Below are positions 7,364 to 31,700 of a DNA stretch of 64,000 nt, one piece after another; the first letter of the stretch is position 1; every line of letters begins with the position of its first letter. A program made the translations under genes and the position numbers. The DNA is from an uncultured bacterium (lineage in GTDB: Bacteria; Chloroflexota; UBA5177; JANWHV01). The DNA lies in assembly GCA_963729625.1 (NCBI GenBank), contig CAVSOU010000011.1, positions 32,001 to 96,000 on the forward strand. The letters run 5' to 3'. Below the pieces are notes generated by a model. That model did not search any database, was not told where the DNA came from, and was given only the letters and a program-made list of their open reading frames with translations.

Positions 7364-8264
7364 ATGGCGACAGTCGCCTCGCGCAGGACCACGGGCGTCA
7401 CCGCGCGTGCGCCAAGAACGCCGCGATGGCTCATCGCCATGGTCATCGTTTATGCGCTGCTTCTCGTCTTCTCGTTCATTGCCCTGTCCCCGTTTGTCTT
7501 CGCCGTGCTGTCGGCTTTCAAGACGGCCGACAAGGTGCTCGAGTAACGCCGCGCCTGATCCCCAATCCCTGGACGCTCTCGAACTTCTCTGACCTGCTCA
7601 ACAATCACAGCACCGACGTGCAGTTCACCCGCTGGTTGGTGAACAGCCTGTTCTACGCCGTGTCCATCGCCGGCCTGAACCTTCTCTTCAGCTCAATGGC
7701 GGCCTTCGCCCTCGCGCGCCTGCAGTTCATAGGCAAGACGTTCTGGTTCTGGATCACGCTTGCCGTGATGATGATCCGGGCGAGATCAACTGGATGAGCG
7801 TCTACATCATCCTGAACCATTTCGGCCCGTTCAACCTGATCGACACATATTGGGCCGTGATTCTCCCCGCTGCGGCGCAGCCGTTCTCGGTCTTCCTGAT
7901 CACCCAGTTCCTGAAAAGCCTGCCCGTCGAGGTCGAGGAGGCGGCAACGATCGACGGCGCCTCGAAGTTCCGCACGTACTGGCAGGTCATCCTCCCGATG
8001 GCCCGGCCCGCTCTGGTCGCGGCGGGCATCTTGAGCTTCCAGGGCGCCTGGAACTCCTTCGTTGCCCCGCTCCTCTATCTCGATTCCTCTTCCAAGTTCC
8101 CTCTCACCGTGGGCCTGAACTTCTTCAATGGCACCTATAGCGCCCAGACCAACCTGATTCTCGCCGGCGCCATGTTCAACACACTCCCCATGGTGATCAT
8201 CTTCTTCGTCTTCCAGCGCTACTTCATCCAGGGAGCCGCCACCAGCGGCCTGGCCGGACGTTAG
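7364..8264 (+). CDS. Sugar ABC permease, MalG-like (frameshifts near 7545 and 7780)
   Basis: LIPNPWTLSNF, NSLFYA, EEAATIDGAS, WNSF, FQRYFIQG. Confidence 0.9.
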
Positions 8265-8309
8265 TCGACGACAGCATCCGCGCTCGTCGAGGAAAACCGA
8301 CAAACCTGG

Positions 8310-8468
8310 TGCTCATCACCGATAGCGATCTCAGGTATTGACAGCGTCGAGCATCGCCACGACATTTTGCGGCGGTACGTCCGCGAGGACGTTGTGCACC
8401 TGCTGGAACACGAATCCACCGCCGGGACGCATGATCTCAACTTGCCGCGTGACATGCTCGCGAATCTC
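8310..8468. repeat. Direct repeat copy 2
   Basis: Matches 1891..2049. Confidence 0.95.
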
Positions 8469-9555
8469 TGTCGGGCGTGCCGTGCGACAACAGCCACTGC
8501 GTATCGCAGCCGCCACCCCAGAACGTGATGTCCTTGCCGAAGTCGCGCTTGAGCCCGGCCGCATCCATGCCTGCGCAGCTGATCTGCACCGGGTTGATCG
8601 CATCCAGCCCGGCATCGATGAGATCGGGCAGCAGTGGGCGCACGCCGCCGCAGCAGTGCAGCATGACCTTCACGTCAGCCAGTTCCTTTGCGCGTCTCCA
8701 CAATCTGCTGTGACGGGGCTTGAAGAACTCGCGATACATTTTCGGCGAGATCTGTGGCCCCGTCTGCATACCCAGGTCGTCGCCGAAGCCGATCACGTCG
8801 ATGGAGGGACCTACCAGGCCCAGGTACTTCTCGAGATCGACCAGATGCAGCTCCATCAAGCGATCGAGCAGATCGTGAGCGCGATCGGGCTCGCCGGCGA
8901 GCAACATCAGGAAATTGTCGTTCCGGTAGAGGAATTGTCCCCACTCCAGCAGGTTGCCCCCGAACAAACCCACAATCGCGCGATCGGTCAGCGCCTGCAG
9001 GCGCTGTGCGCCCGCGGTGAACAGCGCGTCGCCGTCTGGCCCTTCGACGAGCGGCCCGGGAGGGCTCGCGGTCGACCACATGCATTCCGCCATCACCTCG
9101 CGCAGCGCCTCATGCCGGGGCTCATCCACCGCGAACGGGTAGTAGGCGGTCTCAAAGTACAGCGCCCCATCCGGCATCTGGGCAGAGACTCTACCCGTCC
9201 TGGAGCGCAATACCCACCTCTGCTGCTCACGCTCCGGCAGGCACCAAACTGGAACCTGGCAGGGCGTGCCGTCTGGCAATGTCCAATTCGCCCAGTCTTC
9301 GTCGCGCAGAGAGAATCCCCGTCCCAGCTCGATCGTGTCGATGCCGAACCGATCGAGGACGTCGTCGTCGACGACTGCCAGTTGCTGCACGATGTCGTAG
9401 ACGCGAACCGGCTTGTTGGGCATGCCCAGGTGGTCGCGGAGTCTGCGATAGGCGATTGCGGAAATCCCCGACGAGCGGTGTCCCGAGAAGTCGATTGGCA
9501 CCTTGTCGGATTCTTGATGGCGCAGGGCGGTGAGCACGCGATCGCGTGAATTCAT
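8331..9555 (-). CDS. Uroporphyrinogen decarboxylase / MtaA-CmuA methyltransferase-fold protein (frameshift near 8470)
   Basis: MNSRDRVLTALRHQESDKVPID, GDDLGMQTGPQISP, HCCGG, NPVQ, FWGGGCDTQ, GGGFVFQQVHN. Confidence 0.85.
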
Positions 9556-9588
9556 GGCGATCTCCCTTCGCAAGCACGGCGGGTCATC

Positions 9589-10938
9589 CTACCTCTGTGG
9601 CGCCCCGGGTGCCAGGCCGAGCAGCAACCGGGGGCTTTCGTAAAGCACCGCACGAGCGACCTCGAGTGCGCTCTCCACGCTGTGCTGTCCCTGCGCGACC
9701 TGCTCGGCAAGCACGTGGGCGAGCTGCTTGCGCACCATCACAGCCTTTGCGTAGGCCCACTCGACCACGTAGGCGTCTGAGAAGAACCCTATCTGTTTGC
9801 TCCACGGCAGCATGTCCAGGCGCTCGGCGATTACCGCGCGGATCACGGAAGGGAAGAAGTTGTGCCACCAGTAGCCGGCCAGGCTCAGGTTGGGTAGTTC
9901 ACGCGCAAGCGTGCAGAGCGACTGATTGCCGTGTTGGCTGGCCAGGAAGCACTGGAACCGGATACGCGGGTGCCGGCCGACGATCTCCGCCAGCTGCGTG
10001 ATCGTTCGTTGTGGCAGGAGACTCGCCGTTTCGTACGGCATGGGCTCCGCGCCCAGCGAGAACTGGAAGACAAGGCTGTCTGCAAGCGGCTCAAACGCCG
10101 TCAGGAACGCTTCGTTGATATATGATGCGTAGACGTCGCGCTCTCTCGGACCGGCTTTCTCGCGGCGCGCCAGCGCTGCTGCCAGGTCCGCGTCACCGGG
10201 CACGGAATAGTCAATATTCGTCGACAGGTGAGTGGCCGTGGCGACGATCCGATCGCTGGGAATGTTGGCCACGTAGTGACTGACAGCAGCATGTACGTCG
10301 TCAAGCGTGCGTATCCGTCGATCGGTAGGAGGGCGCGCGCCCGATCCTATCGGTGTCGACGCCTCAGGCTGGCGGCCCCAGCAGCGCTCAAGCTCGTACA
10401 GCGCGGTATCATGTTCGCCCCACTGGCAGCGCGTGAAGAACCCCCATTCCAGCGCGTACTGGAAACGGGCATCGTCCACGCCGTCTCCGCGCCGCACGAC
10501 TTCAGTCACCGATCGCGTGATACCGGCCCGGTCCAGAATACTGTACGACCACTGGCGATCGCGAGATCTCTCCCGAATGATGTCGTCGAGACGGCGCCAG
10601 TTGTCGGCGGTGATCGGCTGATGCCAATCGTAGAGGTCGGCAAGGATCACGCGCAGGCACCATGCCGAGCTCGTGTTCTGAATGTGCGGAAGGAAGGGAA
10701 TCGCCTCCTCAATGCGAGCGCGCGCTTCCGCATCGCTCGGCCACGAGGGGAAAGCAGTGAGGCGGGCCCCGCTCGGGCACCCGGCCGCGTAGAGATCGCT
10801 AATCACCATGTGGTACAGCAGCACGTCGTGGAGACCCTGTGCGCCCAGGCTGCCGCAGGTGAGATGCGTGTGGGCGTCGAGCAGTGGCATCGTGGCGAGG
10901 GCCTGCTCGATCTCGCCGGCTGTTGCTGTCGCGTTCAT
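9589..10938 (-). CDS. Amidohydrolase-fold protein, uronate isomerase-like
   Basis: DAHTHL metal motif, HDVLLYH, LAGYWWH, FFSDAY. Confidence 0.7.
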   Translation of the reverse strand: MNATATAGEIEQALATMPLLDAHTHLTCGSLGAQGLHDVLLYHMVISDLYAAGCPSGARLTAFPSWPSDAEARARIEEAIPFLPHIQNTSSAWCLRVILADLYDWHQPITADNWRRLDDIIRERSRDRQWSYSILDRAGITRSVTEVVRRGDGVDDARFQYALEWGFFTRCQWGEHDTALYELERCWGRQPEASTPIGSGARPPTDRRIRTLDDVHAAVSHYVANIPSDRIVATATHLSTNIDYSVPGDADLAAALARREKAGPRERDVYASYINEAFLTAFEPLADSLVFQFSLGAEPMPYETASLLPQRTITQLAEIVGRHPRIRFQCFLASQHGNQSLCTLARELPNLSLAGYWWHNFFPSVIRAVIAERLDMLPWSKQIGFFSDAYVVEWAYAKAVMVRKQLAHVLAEQVAQGQHSVESALEVARAVLYESPRLLLGLAPGAPQR

Positions 10939-10976
10939 AGTGAATGCTCCTTCACCAATGCCCCGATGCTGACCGA

Positions 10977-11618
10977 CTAGAGCGAAGCCAGCCACTCGCG
11001 GATTTCCTTGGGGTTTTCACGAAACATGAGCGATCCCGGCACGATCCAGTCGGCGCCGGCCGCCTTGAGCACCGGAACCGTCTCGCGGCGAATGCCGCCA
11101 TCCGCTTCGATCTCGGTCGTCAGGTGCCGGCTCCTCACGATCTCCTTCGCCGCGCCTATCTTCCCCGGCACTCTGGGGTCCATCGTCGCTCCCTTGATGC
11201 CCATCGCCGTGCCGCACACGGCCACGATGTCCAGGTCAGGCCAGTAAGGTTCAAGGACCGTAACAGGCTCCTGCACGAGGAGCGACACGCCCGCCCTCAG
11301 TCCGAATGACTTGATGACCTTGATCACGGTCCCCGGCTCGTCGGTGGCGTCGAAGCAAAATATCAGCGCATTCGCTCCCGCCTCCGCGAAGGGCGCGATC
11401 CACGCCAGCGGATCTGTGACCATAATGTGGACCTCGAACGGGAGCGTTGTATGTGCCCGCAATGCGCGAACGAGATCCGGAAAGAAGAGCAAACTGTTCA
11501 CGTAGTGACCATCGGCAACGTCAAAGTGGAAGCTGTCAGTATATGGTTCTACGCGTCTGATTTCATCGCCAAGCCTTGAGAGATCGGCGGACCAAAGGGA
11601 TGCAGCGCATTTCAGCAT
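10977..11618 (-). CDS. Ribulose-phosphate 3-epimerase family (Rpe/AlsE-like)
   Basis: ASLWSAD, HFDVADGHYV, EVHIMV, IEADGGI, VPGS. Confidence 0.9.
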   Translation of the reverse strand: MLKCAASLWSADLSRLGDEIRRVEPYTDSFHFDVADGHYVNSLLFFPDLVRALRAHTTLPFEVHIMVTDPLAWIAPFAEAGANALIFCFDATDEPGTVIKVIKSFGLRAGVSLLVQEPVTVLEPYWPDLDIVAVCGTAMGIKGATMDPRVPGKIGAAKEIVRSRHLTTEIEADGGIRRETVPVLKAAGADWIVPGSLMFRENPKEIREWLASL

Positions 11619-26455: not shown

Positions 26456-29275
26456 CTAGCCCACGCTGTGCTGTTGTGCCAGGCTCGGCACAAGGCTTAG
26501 GAGCGTGCCCTGTTGGTCGACCAGCTGATCGGCAATGCAGCGCAGGAGCGCATCGACTACCTGAGGGTCCCATTGTAGCCCGCGGCCCTGGCGCAGGATA
26601 CCCGCCGCCTTGGCGACAGACATGCCGGGGCGATACGGTCGGTCGCTGGTCATCGCGTCGAAGCCGTCCGCTACCGCGAGCACCCGCGCCCCGAAGGGGA
26701 TGGCCAGCCCCTTGAGCCCATCCGGGTACCCCCTGCCATCCCATGCTTCGTGGTGGTGCCGCACAATCGTAATGCCGCGCGTGAAGTCCTGATACCCTGC
26801 CAACACCTCGGTTCCCCTCACCGGATGCGTCTTCATGAGCGCAAACTCGGCGGCGGTCAGCGCTCCGGGCTTGTTCAGAATCGCGTCAGGAATGGCGATC
26901 TTGCCGATGTCATGCACGCGCGCGGCCGAGAGAATCAACTCACAGTCGGGACCACTGAGCTTCATCTCCCGCAGGATTTGGCCACAGTACTCTTCAACGC
27001 GCCGCGAGTGGCCGCCGGTGCAGGGATCGCGCAGATCTACCGTCTCGGCCATACTCTCTAGCAGCCGGTGGGTGGAGTCCTGCACGTCGTGCAAGTGCTT
27101 CGCTGCCTTGTAGACCAATGCCCCGGGTACCACAAGAAGCACCAATGCCCATTCCGCGCGCTGGGAGACCAGTACCCCAAGGAAACCGACCAGGTACTGT
27201 ATGCCGTCGGGCACGGCGGTGTCGCCGGCAAGTGCACGCAGCACGCGCAGCGGCCGCTCCCCCGTCATGGGAGCCACAATCAGCGGTAGGGTGACGAAAT
27301 CGCCGGCCCACAGCACCAGGGCCGATGCTGCAAGCATGAGTAGCGCGGCGTCTCCCGGAGCGGGTACGTGGGCCACCAGATTGCCCAAGAGCACGACGAG
27401 CACCCACCGGGCGACAGCCGTGGCAATATCACTCGGATAGAGCTTGCGCTGCTCGCGCACCGATACTTCCCCGAGCAAGGTGCCGAACCCGGCTGCAACC
27501 AGAGCAAGCGGCAGGGGCAGTAACGCGGCGATTAGGAAGTACGCCATCGTTGAGAGTTGCACCTTGACGTGGAGACGAATGTGGATAGGGTACTGGTAGG
27601 CCACGACGACCGCGGCGGCGAGTGCCATCGCTTCCAACGTCACGCCCAGCGGTGCCGATCCAAGCTGGACCGCCGGCGACTGTAGCGCCGCGACCGTTGC
27701 CGCCACGGCCAGGAGCATAGTGGCGAGCGCCATCCCAGGCTGGGGCAACAGAGGCGACAACCGCTCCCAAATGGGCACTGCCCTCGCGCGGCCTGCTGGT
27801 CGTTTGTGGCCAGTGTCGCCGGCCAGACTCGCGGGCGCCTGATCACCGCCTTCTGCCTGTAGTTGCCGTGCGGCTGCCGACGTCGGAGTCGCTATCGCTG
27901 CGAATGCGGCAGCGCCCGCGGGTATTGCCAGCGGGGCGCGATCATGCACCTCGCCGTGCGCCTCAGCTGGGACCGGCATCGGCATCGTCGCGGGCCCGGC
28001 GTGCTGTGCCGGCTCCTCCTGCCTGCCCTCGTCCGTTGTCGCCGCGACCGCCTTTCCCGCCGGCTGCGGGATCCGGCGGTCCCACGAGAGATCAGATGCG
28101 CGCACCACGGTATTGCGTCCGCGGGTCTTGGCCTCGTAGACCGCCATATCGGCGGCAAAGATCAGCTCCTCCGAGGTGCTCCCGTCCTGCGGATAGCAGG
28201 CCACACCCAGGCTCATGGTCACCCTGATCGGTTCGGCAGACGTCGCGACCGGAAAGCGCGCGTCGGCGACGGCCCGCCTCAGGCGCTCGGCCAGAGTCTC
28301 GGCCACATAGGGATCGGCCTCAGGCGTGACCAAGAGGAACTCCTCACCGCCGAAGCGGCCGCCGATGTCGTACTCACGCATAGTCTGGCGGATGACCTGG
28401 CCGATGCCGGCCAGGACCGCATCGCCGGCAAGGTGCCCATAGCAGTTGTTGACATTGCGCAGCAGGTCGAGGTCGGCCATGATCACGGCGAGAGGCCGCT
28501 CAAAGCGGCTGGCGCGGTTGAGCTCCGCGCTGAACAGGGTTTTGAAGTGCCCAGCGTTGGCCAGTCCGGTCTTGCTGTCGATGGCGGCCAGGTGCTGGAG
28601 CTGCGGGATCATCAATGCCCGGTACATCAGCACGAGCGGGGTGAGGGCAGGCACGATGAAGATTGGATGGAGCTGCCAGAGCGTGGCAACCACCAAGCCC
28701 AGGCAGGCCAGGACCAGGTCGGTCAACGTACTCGAAAAGTCGAGCATCTCGGAGTCGTGCCAGCTCACGCCGCGGGCCAGGACCAGGGCAAGACCCAGAA
28801 GAACCCGGTTGAGGAGCACGTAGCTGAGCGCCGCTACCAGCCCCCTGATTGCCGGTGCGGCCGCGGAATCCGAACCACCTAAGGCGGTTAGCGCCACATA
28901 CAGCCAGTAGGCGCTCAAGCCGGTGAAACCGGTCATGGCGATGTTGAAGGGCTGGAGGTACCAGGCGCGCAGGTGCGGGCTGCGCTGCCAGCGCTCCTTG
29001 CCCCACTCGATCAGATGGGGAATTGCCACCAACAGCACAATCAGGAAAGGAGGCAGGAGCAGCACGCCGGCGAAGAAGAAGATTGGGCTGGTGTAGAACA
29101 GGACGTGGTTGGGCGCTTCCGCCTTGAATAGCTGCGCGAGCGTCGCCAGCACGGTCAGCGCCGCGAACGTACCCCAGGCCGCTGGAGTCGGGGCGAAGCG
29201 CAGCACGGCAAGGGTACTGAGCAGCAGGCCGGAGCCGAGTACGCCGCCCACGTAGGCGCGGGCGCCAATCGACAT
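26456..29275 (-). CDS. Membrane c-di-GMP enzyme: TM sensor-GGDEF-linker-TM sensor-HD-GYP
   Basis: Two multi-TM blocks; DSKTGLAN, RxxD (REYD) I-site, GGEEF; HSRRV, HDIGK, HHEAWDGRGYP. Confidence 0.93.
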   Translation of the reverse strand: MSIGARAYVGGVLGSGLLLSTLAVLRFAPTPAAWGTFAALTVLATLAQLFKAEAPNHVLFYTSPIFFFAGVLLLPPFLIVLLVAIPHLIEWGKERWQRSPHLRAWYLQPFNIAMTGFTGLSAYWLYVALTALGGSDSAAAPAIRGLVAALSYVLLNRVLLGLALVLARGVSWHDSEMLDFSSTLTDLVLACLGLVVATLWQLHPIFIVPALTPLVLMYRALMIPQLQHLAAIDSKTGLANAGHFKTLFSAELNRASRFERPLAVIMADLDLLRNVNNCYGHLAGDAVLAGIGQVIRQTMREYDIGGRFGGEEFLLVTPEADPYVAETLAERLRRAVADARFPVATSAEPIRVTMSLGVACYPQDGSTSEELIFAADMAVYEAKTRGRNTVVRASDLSWDRRIPQPAGKAVAATTDEGRQEEPAQHAGPATMPMPVPAEAHGEVHDRAPLAIPAGAAAFAAIATPTSAAARQLQAEGGDQAPASLAGDTGHKRPAGRARAVPIWERLSPLLPQPGMALATMLLAVAATVAALQSPAVQLGSAPLGVTLEAMALAAAVVVAYQYPIHIRLHVKVQLSTMAYFLIAALLPLPLALVAAGFGTLLGEVSVREQRKLYPSDIATAVARWVLVVLLGNLVAHVPAPGDAALLMLAASALVLWAGDFVTLPLIVAPMTGERPLRVLRALAGDTAVPDGIQYLVGFLGVLVSQRAEWALVLLVVPGALVYKAAKHLHDVQDSTHRLLESMAETVDLRDPCTGGHSRRVEEYCGQILREMKLSGPDCELILSAARVHDIGKIAIPDAILNKPGALTAAEFALMKTHPVRGTEVLAGYQDFTRGITIVRHHHEAWDGRGYPDGLKGLAIPFGARVLAVADGFDAMTSDRPYRPGMSVAKAAGILRQGRGLQWDPQVVDALLRCIADQLVDQQGTLLSLVPSLAQQHSVG

Positions 29276-29321
29276 CGCTGCCCGCCCTTCACTCGCCAAG
29301 CGGCGCCCTCTGCGCCGCGCT

Positions 29322-29350
29322 CAGCACTTGCTAGTAGACTAGCATTGCTG
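29322..29350. promoter_or_regulatory. Inverted repeat upstream of the GGDEF/HD-GYP gene
   Basis: CAGCA-ct-TGCTAGT-ag-ACTAGCA-t-TGCTG. Confidence 0.5.
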
Positions 29351-29480
29351 CACGCGGGAGTCGCTCCCCCAGTTGGGAGGTGTCCCGCGGCCAAATCTGC
29401 CGTTAGCCACTCGCTGACTGGTCGGACCGTCGCCGATCACTCAGAGCTGGATGCCCTGCGACGCGAGGAAGATCGAGGGC

Positions 29481-29505
29481 GGGCACGACCCTGACACCCG
29501 TGCCC
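29481..29505 (-). terminator. Stem-loop just after the S8 stop codon (no U tract)
   Basis: GGGCACG-11 nt-CGTGCCC. Confidence 0.35.
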
Positions 29506-29509
29506 ACGG

Positions 29510-31044
29510 TCAGCTGCCCCAGTAGTCGCTGCCCCAGTTCACCGAGCCCCAATTGACGCTGCCCCAGTTCACCGAGCCCCAGTTGACACTGCCCCAGTTC
29601 ACCGAACCCCAGTTCACGCTGCCCCAGGTGACAGGCTGGCTGCCGGTCCACAGCAGCTGGCTGGCAGCTATCCCGGTGTTTGATGTGGCAGTCGCTGTGC
29701 CGTGCACCGCGGCGTAAGCATCCACCTCGCCCGCACCCGTGCCCGCGCCCACATAGTGAGCCGTAGCCTTCAGGCGATATTTGACTTGGTCGGGATTGAG
29801 TGCCGGGTTGGACTGCAGCAAGAGCGCCACCACGCCGGACACCACGGGAGCCGCCATGGACGTGCCCGACATCCGCAGGTAGATGCTGCCGCTAGGCCCA
29901 TTGACCACGTTGGCCGGGTGCGCAACACAGATGACGCAGTTCACATTCCCGGACAAGCTCACCAGGTTGCTTCCAGGCGCCACCACATCCGGCTTGCTGA
30001 ATCCGTCTGTGGTGGTCCCGTACATGGAGTACGTGGCCAGCGTATGGTTGGCCAGATTGGTCGAACCGTGATCGTCCACCGCGCCCACGGTGATCACGAA
30101 GGGATCGTTAGCAGGCGCGTAGACGCCCCCGCTGTTCCCCGCGGAGACCACGACGACGATGCCGTTGAACCAGAGTATCTCGACGGCAGCGTCGATCGGG
30201 TCCACGTTGTAGGAATCCGGAGCTGTGCTGTTGAGCGAGAGGTTCACGACGCGGATATTGTAGGTCTGCTTGTGGGCGAGCACCCACTGCAAGCCCTGGA
30301 CGACGTTCGACGCGGTGCTCGCGCCCTGGTCGTCGCTGACCTTCACATTGATGATGTTGGCGCTCGGCGCTATCCCGACATAGGCGCCGTTTGATCGACT
30401 CGCCGTTGCCGGCAATGATGCCGGCGACGTGGTCGCCGTGGCCATACATGTCCGTGACCGACGTGTTGGGGCCGCTGTTGAACGCGACGTTGGCCACCAA
30501 CCGGCTGACACCCAACGGCGTGTACAGGTCTTGCGTCGGATTGACGCCGCTGTCGACGACCGCGACGCCGACGCCCTGCCCCTGCAGATACGCAGGCCCT
30601 TCATTCCAGACCCGTGAGGCGCCCACATCCTGAGGATTCGAGACTCAGCAGATTCGCGGTGTTGATGCACTGCGTACAGGAGCTGGCATGCACGACCGGT
30701 GCGTCGGTCGAGACCCACCGTACCGATGCTGCGCCCGCCAGCTTGGGCAGCATTCGTGCCCGTATGGTCGCGCTGAAGCCGTTGATGATCGGCAGCAGTA
30801 CTCCGACCTTGCCGCCTAGCGCGTGCACCAGCTCTTGTGCGCTGGTCGTTGAGCCCGTCGCCTGCACGATGACTGTCACCGTGGCCCCAGGCCGGGCCGC
30901 AGCTAGTTGCAGCAGGACAGGCTGCGCCTTGAGCGACTGAGCACGCGCTACGGTCGCGCTCGCCGGTGGTACCGCGAGGATCGCGACGAGCGCCAGGGCA
31001 GGCAGCCAGCGCCACTTGTTGGACCAGTGACGCGTCGTCTCCAT
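29510..31044 (-). CDS. Secreted S8 subtilisin-like serine protease (AprX-like) with Trp-rich repeat tail (frameshifts near 30630 and 30395)
   Basis: GGAGG RBS, signal peptide, propeptide; VAVVDSG (Asp), YGHGDHVAGII (His), SAGN, SGTSMAAP (Ser). Confidence 0.92.
29513..29626 (-). repeat. Coding 15-bp tandem repeat: (WGSVN)6-WGSDY-WGS
   Basis: Six 15-nt units with synonymous codon variation at the protease C-terminus. Confidence 0.95.
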
Positions 31045-31187
31045 GATAGTAATCCCTCCAAATTTCACGATAACCTTACCGGCTCTGCCGGAATCAGTGC
31101 ACCAGGACCGGCGACTCTGTCGACGCGCCTCCAAATGGGTGCATCCGCAGCTTGCATGACCGGTCTCCGTCCTCCGCCACGCCACGC

Positions 31188-31700
31188 CTACGATCCCCAG
31201 CTCACGTTTGGCTTGACGGTCGAGGCGCTGCCGATAACGGTGAGAATGGGCTGGTTGCTCATTCCTGCCACCTGGACTTGCGTGCTGCCGAGCCAGGCAT
31301 TGCCGGATTCGTGGACGGTCACCGGCACACTGCCACCCGTCGTGGTGACCGTGGTGATGGTTGACACAGTCTGGTCCGTGCGGTCGGCGGTGTAGGAGTA
31401 CGTTTCTTTCCCCTGCAGCGCGCCGCCGGTAGCGACATATGTCGTCACCACGGTGCCCACGGGGCCGTGGACAGCATAAGAGATACTCTGAACTTGCGTG
31501 CTGCTTGCGCTCACGTCGACGCCCACATTGATCTGCGAGGTCGCGCCCGCTCCTGAGGCGTCCGCGATCCAGATGATCGGTCCGGCGCGACTTCCTACGG
31601 CGGCGCGCACTTCCGGCGCGTGTGCCCAGCCGCCGGCCAGAACTCCGGCTAGCACCGTCACGCCCATCAGGGCACGAACCCCACGTACAACCTTCGTCAT
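31188..31700 (-). CDS. Secreted Thr/Val/Ser-rich hypothetical protein (170 aa) ending in NVSWGS
   Basis: AGGGAG RBS, MTKVVRGVRALMGVTVLAGVLAGGWAHA signal-like peptide, beta-strand-like composition. Confidence 0.75.
   Translation of the reverse strand: MTKVVRGVRALMGVTVLAGVLAGGWAHAPEVRAAVGSRAGPIIWIADASGAGATSQINVGVDVSASSTQVQSISYAVHGPVGTVVTTYVATGGALQGKETYSYTADRTDQTVSTITTVTTTGGSVPVTVHESGNAWLGSTQVQVAGMSNQPILTVIGSASTVKPNVSWGS

Follow-up and report, generated by a model that had tools for sequence, protein, structure and literature searches.

We have found that a secreted S8 protease (subtilase) with a C-terminal array of tryptophan (Trp) pentapeptides is repeatedly encoded upstream of a polytopic membrane protein whose N-terminal module, here termed TM1, is fused to enzymes of cyclic di-GMP (c-di-GMP) turnover. 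The pairing was studied from a 64,000-nucleotide stretch of DNA, referred to as the window, of an uncultured bacterium (GTDB lineage Bacteria; Chloroflexota; UBA5177; JANWHV01; assembly GCA_963729625.1, contig CAVSOU010000011.1, positions 32,001 to 96,000). Judged by its recurrence between genomes, the S8-TM1 cassette is a real, conserved and undescribed module; no literature on Trp-tailed S8 proteases paired with c-di-GMP sensors was found. It is hypothesized, with a confidence somewhat short of even, that the cassette is a conserved Chloroflexota envelope-signalling module in which the Trp unit links secreted proteins to TM1.

In the window, three genes share the minus strand in the 5' to 3' order small secreted protein, S8 protease and 947-amino-acid (aa) c-di-GMP membrane protein, co-oriented as a preliminary description made from the letters of this DNA had stated, and no terminator-like sites were found between them on the coding strand. 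That description had also assigned intact GGDEF and HD-GYP domains and two multi-helix membrane modules to the third protein, a reading that Pfam and the translated motifs bear out for the two domains. Its GGDEF domain has the active-site motif GGEEF and the I-site REYD, a low-complexity linker separates this domain from the second membrane module (TM2), and both HD-GYP motifs, VHDIGK and HHHEAWDGRGYP, are present.

Trp-tailed S8 proteases and TM1 across Chloroflexota

The tail of the window's S8 gene includes six WGSVN units that are identical in residues and occur in five DNA versions, with serine codons alternating between AGC/AGT and TCG. Because the units are identical in protein and differ in DNA, they are held by selection on the protein and not by recent slippage. 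In an alignment of 26 tails W and S are invariant, and copy number ranges from 4 to 14. Only three open reading frames (ORFs) with at least three WGxxx units occur in this 5.4-Mb genome, all of them S8 tails or the remnant of one. Protein-like ORFs ending in WGS number six and are confined to four loci adjoining c-di-GMP genes; within the genome, the Trp tail is specific to this S8 family. No dedicated short precursor gene was found in the window, where only two ORF ends between 25.5 and 32.5 kb match W[GN]S?, and a search for short proteins with the tail returned only C-terminal fragments of S8 proteases. Pfam PF01469 (Pentapeptide_2), which has a cut-off of 26.4 bits, also matches the tail, at 35.2 bits over residues 257-288 in the last piece of the S8 protein; this match may be compositional.

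Linkage was examined from both sides. Searching the TM1 alignment against one genome per species gave 33 loci, all of them titled Chloroflexota (Chloroflexia, Anaerolineae, Ardenticatenaceae, Herpetosiphonaceae, Roseiflexaceae and Kouleothrix). A Trp-repeat-tailed S8 gene lies upstream on the same strand in 21 of the 33, with an intervening HD-GYP gene in two cases and a contig that starts inside the tail in one. The units in these 21 tails are WGSVN, WGSAS, WGSIN, WGAAN, WGSVD, WDSLN, WNSVN, WTSVN, WTSVS and a WTSRx form; unit types follow sensor subfamilies, with few independent changes. From the repeat side, a DNA pattern for WGS[VA][NS]WGS[VA][NS]WG was searched in metagenome contigs and gave 77 loci, 45 of which, on 40 contigs, hold an S8 gene with a tail. 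The 32 loci that were dropped are mostly unrelated 15-bp repeats (WGWAS, WGCAS), together with one locus (L171) removed by the filter in which a true tail at the contig start is followed by TM1, and which is one more case of pairing. Once 14 contigs with less than 900 bp downstream had been left out of the count, TM1 was found on the same strand no more than 3 kb downstream on 19 of the 26 assessable contigs, at 400 bp or less in 15 of the 19. The preliminary description had named conserved adjacency of Trp-tailed S8 genes to membrane GGDEF/HD-GYP genes as a check of its proposal, and this adjacency holds in both directions. It extends to two other genera of the window's class (L065 and L066), in which an S8 gene with W repeats stands directly before TM1 with no small protein nearby. 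A looser DNA pattern, WGxxxWGxxxWG, applied to 401 genomes, was rejected as too unspecific, most matches being other repeats; only its WGSVN-type matches in genomes G342 and G361 were taken, as extra occurrences, and those in G271, G343 and G055 support no claim.

The motif was also found beside TM1 where no S8 gene precedes it. Just upstream of TM1 in one such locus (L081) is a 92-aa secreted protein that reads ...SLVNWGSRPKP...FDVNWGS-stop, and in another (L077) a 135-aa leader-bearing protein has two AVNWGSR units, ...AVNWGSRIV...AVNWGSRTIVPLSITS-stop. A relaxed motif scan of the 12 S8-less loci returned two ORFs in the real sequences and two in the reversed controls, so that only the exact double VNWGS was counted; an ORF of a third locus (L071) that ends in WTAANWTAANWTGIVRNN (also given as WTAANWTAANWTG) is kept as possible and was not counted. 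Small secreted ORFs carrying the tail motif beside the sensor, which the preliminary description had also expected, are thus present in the window's genus and in these two loci. The Trp motif follows TM1 even without the protease, and the linkage of Trp-unit proteins to TM1, as read from gene order, is strong.

Tails occur in several further forms. In four metagenome loci (L133, L151, L173 and L204) a tandem pair of tailed S8 genes precedes a single TM1 gene, the first ending (WGSVN)n-WGY and the second having Pro-/Arg-rich spacers. The second tail of such pairs reads ...SVNWG-RKPRIPN-SVNWG-WMPPR-SVNWG-WAPTG-SVNWG..., a constant unit between varying spacers that often end in Arg. Constant units with variable spacers argue for unit-by-unit recognition or cutting and against a fixed solenoid. 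Another tail type, seen in P0121, P0124, P0126, P0129 and L202, has a conserved ...LLDP.QE...ELG[IL]TI..DGS... segment that comes after long ASWG[S/D/T] arrays, and these tails probably come from another lineage of tailed S8 proteases. Two short metagenomic ORFs (L180:2133-2255 and L190:3946-4077) hold three or four WGSVN units with no S8 domain around them and could be remnants or stand-alone unit genes.

Fold and family of TM1

A model of TM1 was built with AlphaFold2 (AF2) from a 53-sequence alignment (pLDDT 93, pTM 0.90) and has eight helices, of which the third (71-81) is short. When the model was compared by VIA with 48,161 solved chains, the top 15 were all S-components of energy-coupling factor (ECF) transporters or their kin NikM, CbiM and BtuM, at Z 14.6-9.0, with the next unrelated chain at Z 7.6. 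RibU (5kbw_A) aligned at Z 14.6 with a root-mean-square deviation of 2.7 over 159 of 170 residues, and NikM at Z 14.3 over model residues 9-213; Foldseek matched TM1 to S-components with probability 1.00 and E from 3e-3. TM1 is accordingly modelled with the six-helix S-component fold.

By sequence, no ECF family exceeded its Pfam cut-off for TM1. Neither TM1 nor TM2 matched any Pfam family at E<=0.01, no MASE family was among their weak matches at E<=10, and Pfam MASE9 (PF20972) gave no match at E<=10 for TM1 or TM2 of the window or for TM1 of two paralogues. Relatives have a second TM1-like copy between GGDEF and HD-GYP, and several of these copies pass MASE9 (26.1-33.2 bits against a cut-off of 24.3). 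A hidden Markov model (HMM) of eight relatives' second modules, of which six were scanned and two exceeded the MASE9 cut-off, matches TM1 of the window at 4.6e-19 and does not match TM2; one first module reached 21.3 bits against MASE9, under the cut-off. Since the second copies pass MASE9 and their HMM matches TM1, TM1 is best called a divergent MASE9-like domain. Its representatives number 3800 at E<=1e-3, 1213 at E<=1e-10 and 290 at E<=1e-30, and are fused to GGDEF and HD-GYP, to GGDEF and EAL, or to HD-GYP alone; the TM1 family is, on these matches, a large family of promiscuous, putative sensors. TM2 has a weak Pfam match to ECF-ribofla_trS (E 0.023), and in the data examined here its family was seen only within the window's class. 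Kinship between TM1 and TM2 was considered and is not supported (hhalign probability 3-5%).

The window cassette, its paralogues and its disrupted protease gene

The positions of the cassette's features are given in Table 1.

Table 1. Features of the cassette, in positions of the window
Feature	Positions	Strand	Basis
c-di-GMP membrane protein, 947 aa	26456-29299	-	ORF translation, Pfam
HD-GYP domain, residues 750-914	26558..27052	-	Pfam HD_5, E 1.2e-37, 129.7 bits against cut-off 27.2
TM2, second membrane module, residues ~516-745	27065..27754	-	Alignment A3
GGDEF domain, residues 238-396	28112..28588	-	Pfam PF00990, E 1.2e-40, 139.4 bits against cut-off 23.8
TM1, eight-helix membrane module, residues 1-235	28595..29299	-	Alignments A2, A5; AF2 model
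Trp pentapeptide array, (WGSVN)x6-WGSDY-WGS and stop	29510..29626	-	Translation, codon table; tail alignment A6 (26 tails)
S8 piece 3, rest of catalytic domain with SGTSMAAP (Ser), frame 3	29627..30399	-	Peptidase_S8 profile 75-276, E 1.7e-35
Frameshift site 2, one extra base (~30400)	30385..30401	-	Frame change, paralogue alignment
S8 piece 2, catalytic Asp (VAVVDSG) and His (HGDHVAG), frame 2	30401..30635	-	Peptidase_S8 profile 1-70, E 2.1e-07
Frameshift site 1, one extra base (~30636-30645)	30636..30650	-	Frame-0 stop and frame change
S8 piece 1, signal peptide and propeptide region, frame 1	30646..31044	-	Three-frame translation; tblastn, paralogue residues 23-148
Small secreted protein, 170 aa	31188..31700	-	ORF, translation; family alignment A4 (16 sequences)

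The genome holds three paralogous cassettes. With about 21 GGDEF genes in all, the adjacencies within them are not due to chance, and the three are partly copies of one another. The second cassette, on another contig, comprises in order a small protein (36% identical to that of the window and ending NANWGS), a transposase fragment, an intact S8 gene with the tail WGSAS x10-WGSDYWG, and a TM1-GGDEF-...-GGDEF-EAL protein that shares 59% identity with the window protein over its first 438 residues. The fragment (L007:6858-7349, minus strand) belongs to a DDE transposase (PF01609, E 3.8e-07) and lies between the small gene and the S8 gene. The third cassette consists of an S8 tail remnant, a small protein ending AGWGS, a 69-aa CxxCH mini-protein ending AGWGS and a 935-aa TM1-GGDEF-TM2-HD-GYP protein. 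Its remnant (L009:3175-3387, plus strand) reads ANWGSANWGSVNWGSDY-stop and has no protease body. Two near-identical mini-proteins of 66-69 aa (L009:3979-4188 and L008:7089-7289, both plus strand) have a leader, a CxxCH haem-type motif and the ending PSAGWGS; their only matches are weak (NrfH, E 0.041; CCP_MauG, E 0.033), and each stands just before a membrane c-di-GMP gene, which is a GGDEF-EAL gene in the case of the L008 copy. Translated stretches such as TPTIGLERGRIAKEV, common to L009:2994-3227 and L008:6868-7068, suggest that a segment of DNA around the mini-protein gene has been duplicated. The third cassette is directly followed by a gene for a 678-aa protein (L009:7653-9689, plus strand) whose N-terminus, by eye, resembles a GspE/MshE N-terminal domain and whose remainder resembles a family-2 glycosyltransferase with membrane helices; it is possibly a c-di-GMP-controlled polysaccharide synthase.

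A secreted S8 protease with a Trp tail had been described for the window. The tail is as described, but the gene is not a single ORF and runs through three frames with two +1 shifts. The three frames are collinear by tblastn with an intact 526-aa paralogue on another contig (L007:5281-6858), to which the third piece is 57% identical. The catalytic Asp, His and Ser motifs of Pfam PF00082 occur in order, matched by two of the pieces, and the nearest NCBIfam model is mycosin, at 132.8 bits under a cut-off of 278.75. Skipping one base at the first site gives NLLSSNPQDVGASRVW, equal in length to the paralogue's TLNDVYPQSIGAGSLW. The frameshifts were checked in public sequence, for which three DNA runs (shares 0.06-0.12) and no RNA run were listed; the DNA runs gave cover of site 2 only. 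There, a 248-nucleotide (nt) contig of run X3 covers 30271-30519 with three substitutions at a depth of 2.41 and has one base fewer at about 30400; its missing base restores GNGGRSNGAY, equal in length to the paralogue's GNGANSAGAY. This single low-depth contig lends weak support to an error at site 2.

Split genes were observed elsewhere as well. In L008, a membrane-GAF ORF (7857-9662) and a GGDEF-EAL ORF (9517-11241), both on the plus strand, overlap by about 145 nt in different frames and look like one gene split by a frameshift, an observation relevant either to the quality of the assembly or to a decay of signalling genes. In L065 (G010:C2:848000-867000), from a related genome with long contigs, the tailed S8 gene and the next TM1-GGDEF gene both appear split over two frames.

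The S8 gene of the window is about equally likely to be a recent pseudogene or to contain a local consensus error. There is an even chance that the window's cassette is decaying, with the S8 gene a true pseudogene and no working protease arm, in which case it would have at most the small protein or a paralogous S8 protease. Such decay would agree with two +1 shifts within 1.5 kb in an assembly in which rpoC, rpoB and dnaE are open over 1659, 1188 and 1053 aa with no stops, with the bare tail remnant of the third cassette, with the transposase fragment inside the second, and with a same-genus genome (G004) in which the small gene directly precedes the sensor with no S8 gene. It agrees less well with the preservation of every catalytic motif and of the tail in its own frame, with the near-identical X3 contig that lacks the extra base at site 2 (though this is one contig at low depth), and with the split genes of L008 and L065, which hint at local consensus errors. 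The intact motifs and tail, the five DNA versions of the units and the X3 contig point towards an error or very recent damage.

The small protein has a basic and hydrophobic N-terminal leader, a beta-rich domain and a C-terminal extension that ends KPNVSWGS-stop, which upholds the earlier reading of a secreted 170-aa protein ending NVSWGS. Its AF2 model (pLDDT 79) is all-beta. No Pfam or NCBIfam family matched it, Foldseek found nothing for its fold at E<=0.001, and the best VIA match (Z 5.3) is within noise. The window's class is represented by 21 genomes in the collection, 11 of which have the family. In 15 loci examined from other genomes, the small gene directly precedes a TM2-type gene with no S8 gene between them in seven, and stands alone in eight; the seven sensors comprise five of TM2 with HD-GYP, one of TM2 with GGDEF, and one TM1-GGDEF-TM2-HD-GYP protein, the last in G004. 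Family members that adjoin TM1-containing sensors end NVSWGS, NANWGS, NAGWGS or NAVWGS (three in this genome, one in a same-genus genome), and the remaining 12 aligned members, six of which adjoin TM2-only sensors, have no NWGS-like end, a contrast that amounts to one genus against all others. Among close metagenomic relatives, eight of nine end in (V/A)NWG[S/L]. An HMM from the family alignment (A4) gave no small-protein matches in 110 loci (L067-L099 and L130-L206), so the family is not part of the wider S8-TM1 module.

A proposed role for the Trp unit, alternatives and known systems

The analysis shows which genes, domains and motifs are present, how they are linked, the fold of TM1 and the selection acting on the unit; binding, cleavage and the direction of signalling are inferred. 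The constant core of the module would have two parts: a secreted subtilase with a C-terminal Trp pentapeptide array (W-[G/N/T/D]-S-x-x, here WGSVN), and a polytopic protein in which an N-terminal TM1 drives GGDEF, usually followed by a second membrane module and HD-GYP or EAL. The Trp unit would most likely be a signal or handle through which extracytoplasmic proteins are connected with TM1. Whether tethered on the protease, borne on small secreted carriers or cut off locally, the units would reach TM1 from the outer leaflet and shift the balance of c-di-GMP synthesis against hydrolysis. In the window's genus, a second conserved pair, the small beta-rich secreted protein and a TM2-HD-GYP protein, would have been fused in, and the small protein would have gained its terminal NWGS unit in this fused form.

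Several observations weigh against this explanation. TM1 was not found downstream on seven of the 26 assessable contigs, which show instead another membrane HD-GYP gene (two), a further large protein, a transposase, a PAS sensor, a fragment and one unclear case. No S8 gene lies upstream in 12 of the 33 TM1 loci, nine of which had no motif-bearing ORF in the scan, so TM1 can function with no motif gene beside it. Independence is overstated by the counts, since the loci are related and one organism may have contributed more than one contig (the tail of L170 equals that of L066). In the same-genus genomes G001-G004 no tailed S8 gene was found, the best matches being 36-42% identical, and the window's own S8 gene is disrupted while rpoB, rpoC and dnaE are intact, which makes random assembly error a weaker excuse. 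Small proteins outside the window's genus end in F, W, V or similar residues and not in WGS, and the family is otherwise tied to TM2, which weighs against a simple peptide picture.

The sidedness of TM1 belongs with these points. In S-components, it is the outward loops L1, L3 and L5 that make up the substrate site. The equivalent loops of TM1 are its conserved ones, and carry on average 8.1 lysine and arginine residues against 0.78 on the other face. Internal copies of TM1 cover profile positions 6-224 of 233 between two cytoplasmic domains, which requires an even number of membrane passes. Both the charge bias and the internal copies depart from the S-component topology, which is N-in with L1, L3 and L5 outside. 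The conserved face of TM1 is probably cytoplasmic and its S-component-like core inverted, and the fold match therefore gives no outward-facing peptide pocket. The outer loops have 2-7 residues and low conservation (0.19-0.22). The outer leaflet is the most likely route for any Trp units that reach TM1. A complex prediction for TM1 (A5) and the tail (A6) scored 0.00 with no verdict and is evidence neither way.

A fuller version of the proposal is doubtful. It would make SVNWG/VNWGS an extracellular word used throughout the phylum, written in many copies on the subtilase tail or once on small proteins, and released or presented by the protease. Its reader, inside the membrane, would be a MASE9-type module of transporter-derived (ECF S-component) fold that directly sets c-di-GMP synthesis against hydrolysis. 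On this version the module would be the first circuit from peptide to c-di-GMP and would give the first ligand class for a MASE domain.

The model of the preliminary description, in which the protease cuts its own tail and the end of the small protein and the free Trp peptides serve as a quorum-sensing-like autoinducer, seems unlikely. It would account for identical units kept in many copies by selection on the protein, for the 4-14 copies, a range expected of a dosage device and not of a fixed fold, for spacers that often end in Arg before SVNWG in the second S8 protein of tandem pairs, and for the small proteins of L077 and L081, in both of which an Arg comes after VNWGS. In L081, as in the genus's own small proteins, VNWGS also stands free at the C-terminus. 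The cassette encodes no exporter or importer, however, the contiguous arrays offer no spacer or obvious cut site, the outer face of the sensor is minimal and poorly conserved, and the window's S8 gene is frameshifted. A quorum-sensing version is a possible sub-case of the reading in which the unit links secreted proteins to the sensor.

We likewise give a low probability to the idea that the tail only anchors the protease at the membrane, wall or sheath, that TM1 senses membrane state, protease products or the like, and that the linkage reflects co-regulation, for example control of the protease by c-di-GMP. Short Trp-rich repeats suit a membrane interface, mycosins (the nearest NCBIfam model, below cut-off) are membrane-anchored, TM1 loci without an S8 gene would be expected, and the Pentapeptide_2 match suggests a structural repeat. 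A general anchor would also be expected on other exported proteins, but the tail is confined to this S8 family in the genome, and anchoring leaves unexplained both the single VNWGS ends of unrelated small secreted proteins beside TM1 and the units kept between variable spacers. Inside-out control of the LapD/LapG kind, in which TM1, altered by the c-di-GMP state of the cytoplasmic domains, would keep or let go of the protease by way of a membrane-inserted tail and so control protease activity at the surface, fits a conserved TM1 face probably in the cytoplasm next to the catalytic domains, an I-site REYD that could read c-di-GMP and a protease gene immediately before the sensor gene, but is very unlikely for a sensor with no extracytoplasmic domain to hold a protease, with GGEEF and HD-GYP motifs intact as in enzymes rather than receptors, and with no adhesin-like substrate conserved in the neighbourhood.

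Few input domains are as common in c-di-GMP enzymes as membrane-embedded MASE-type sensors. TM1 now has a genetic partner conserved beside it, in the form of a protease tail and of small proteins sharing one short, invariant Trp motif, and with it a concrete and synthesisable candidate ligand; the cultured organism Kouleothrix aurantiaca COM-B carries the S8-TM1 pair (L073). Filamentous Chloroflexota are abundant in soils, mats and activated sludge, and a functional module would tie extracellular proteolysis or peptide display to biofilm and motility control in them. The S-component fold also suggests how such sensors arose.

Of the systems compared, MASE9 enzymes are the closest to the membrane protein. 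They appear to resemble TM1 in having about eight helices with a short pair, and resemble it in being fused to HD-GYP, GGDEF or GGDEF-EAL, and the domain has been described with eight predicted segments, a short hairpin, short and poorly conserved outer loops and presumed ligand binding within the membrane (Galperin and Chou, bioRxiv 10.1101/2021.11.05.467447). The part of that paper available to us names no ligand, partner protease or relation to the ECF S-component fold (10.1101/2021.11.05.467447). TM1 and TM2 of the window differ in falling below Pfam detection of MASE9. The ECF S-components (RibU, ThiT, BioY, FolT, NikM/CbiM and BtuM) share the predicted fold of TM1, which differs from them in lacking membership of their sequence families, in two extra helices, in its fusion to signalling domains and in the opposite membrane orientation indicated for it. 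Pentapeptide-repeat proteins with the Rfr-type beta-helix have the Pfam match in common with the tail, but its variable copy number and spacer-split units are not suggestive of a fixed solenoid.

LapD/LapG and YfiBNR, like the cassette, encode an extracytoplasmic protein together with a membrane c-di-GMP protein. Unlike LapG, the S8 protein is not a cysteine protease, and in contrast to LapD the sensor has no periplasmic domain and its GGEEF motif is intact, not degenerate. The tails recall fungal precursors processed by Kex2 (alpha-factor and the ustiloxin type) in their tandem identical units, the subtilisin-family protease and some basic-ended spacers; here it is the protease itself that carries the repeats, spacers are absent from most arrays, and the organisms are bacteria. 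In logic only, the cassette is also like AgrD/AgrB/AgrC and ComC/ComD, in which a short secreted motif is encoded beside a receptor almost without an extracytoplasmic domain. It differs in having no dedicated peptide exporter, in a motif that a subtilase bears many times over in its tail and folded secreted proteins bear at their end, and in having c-di-GMP turnover, rather than a histidine kinase, as its output.

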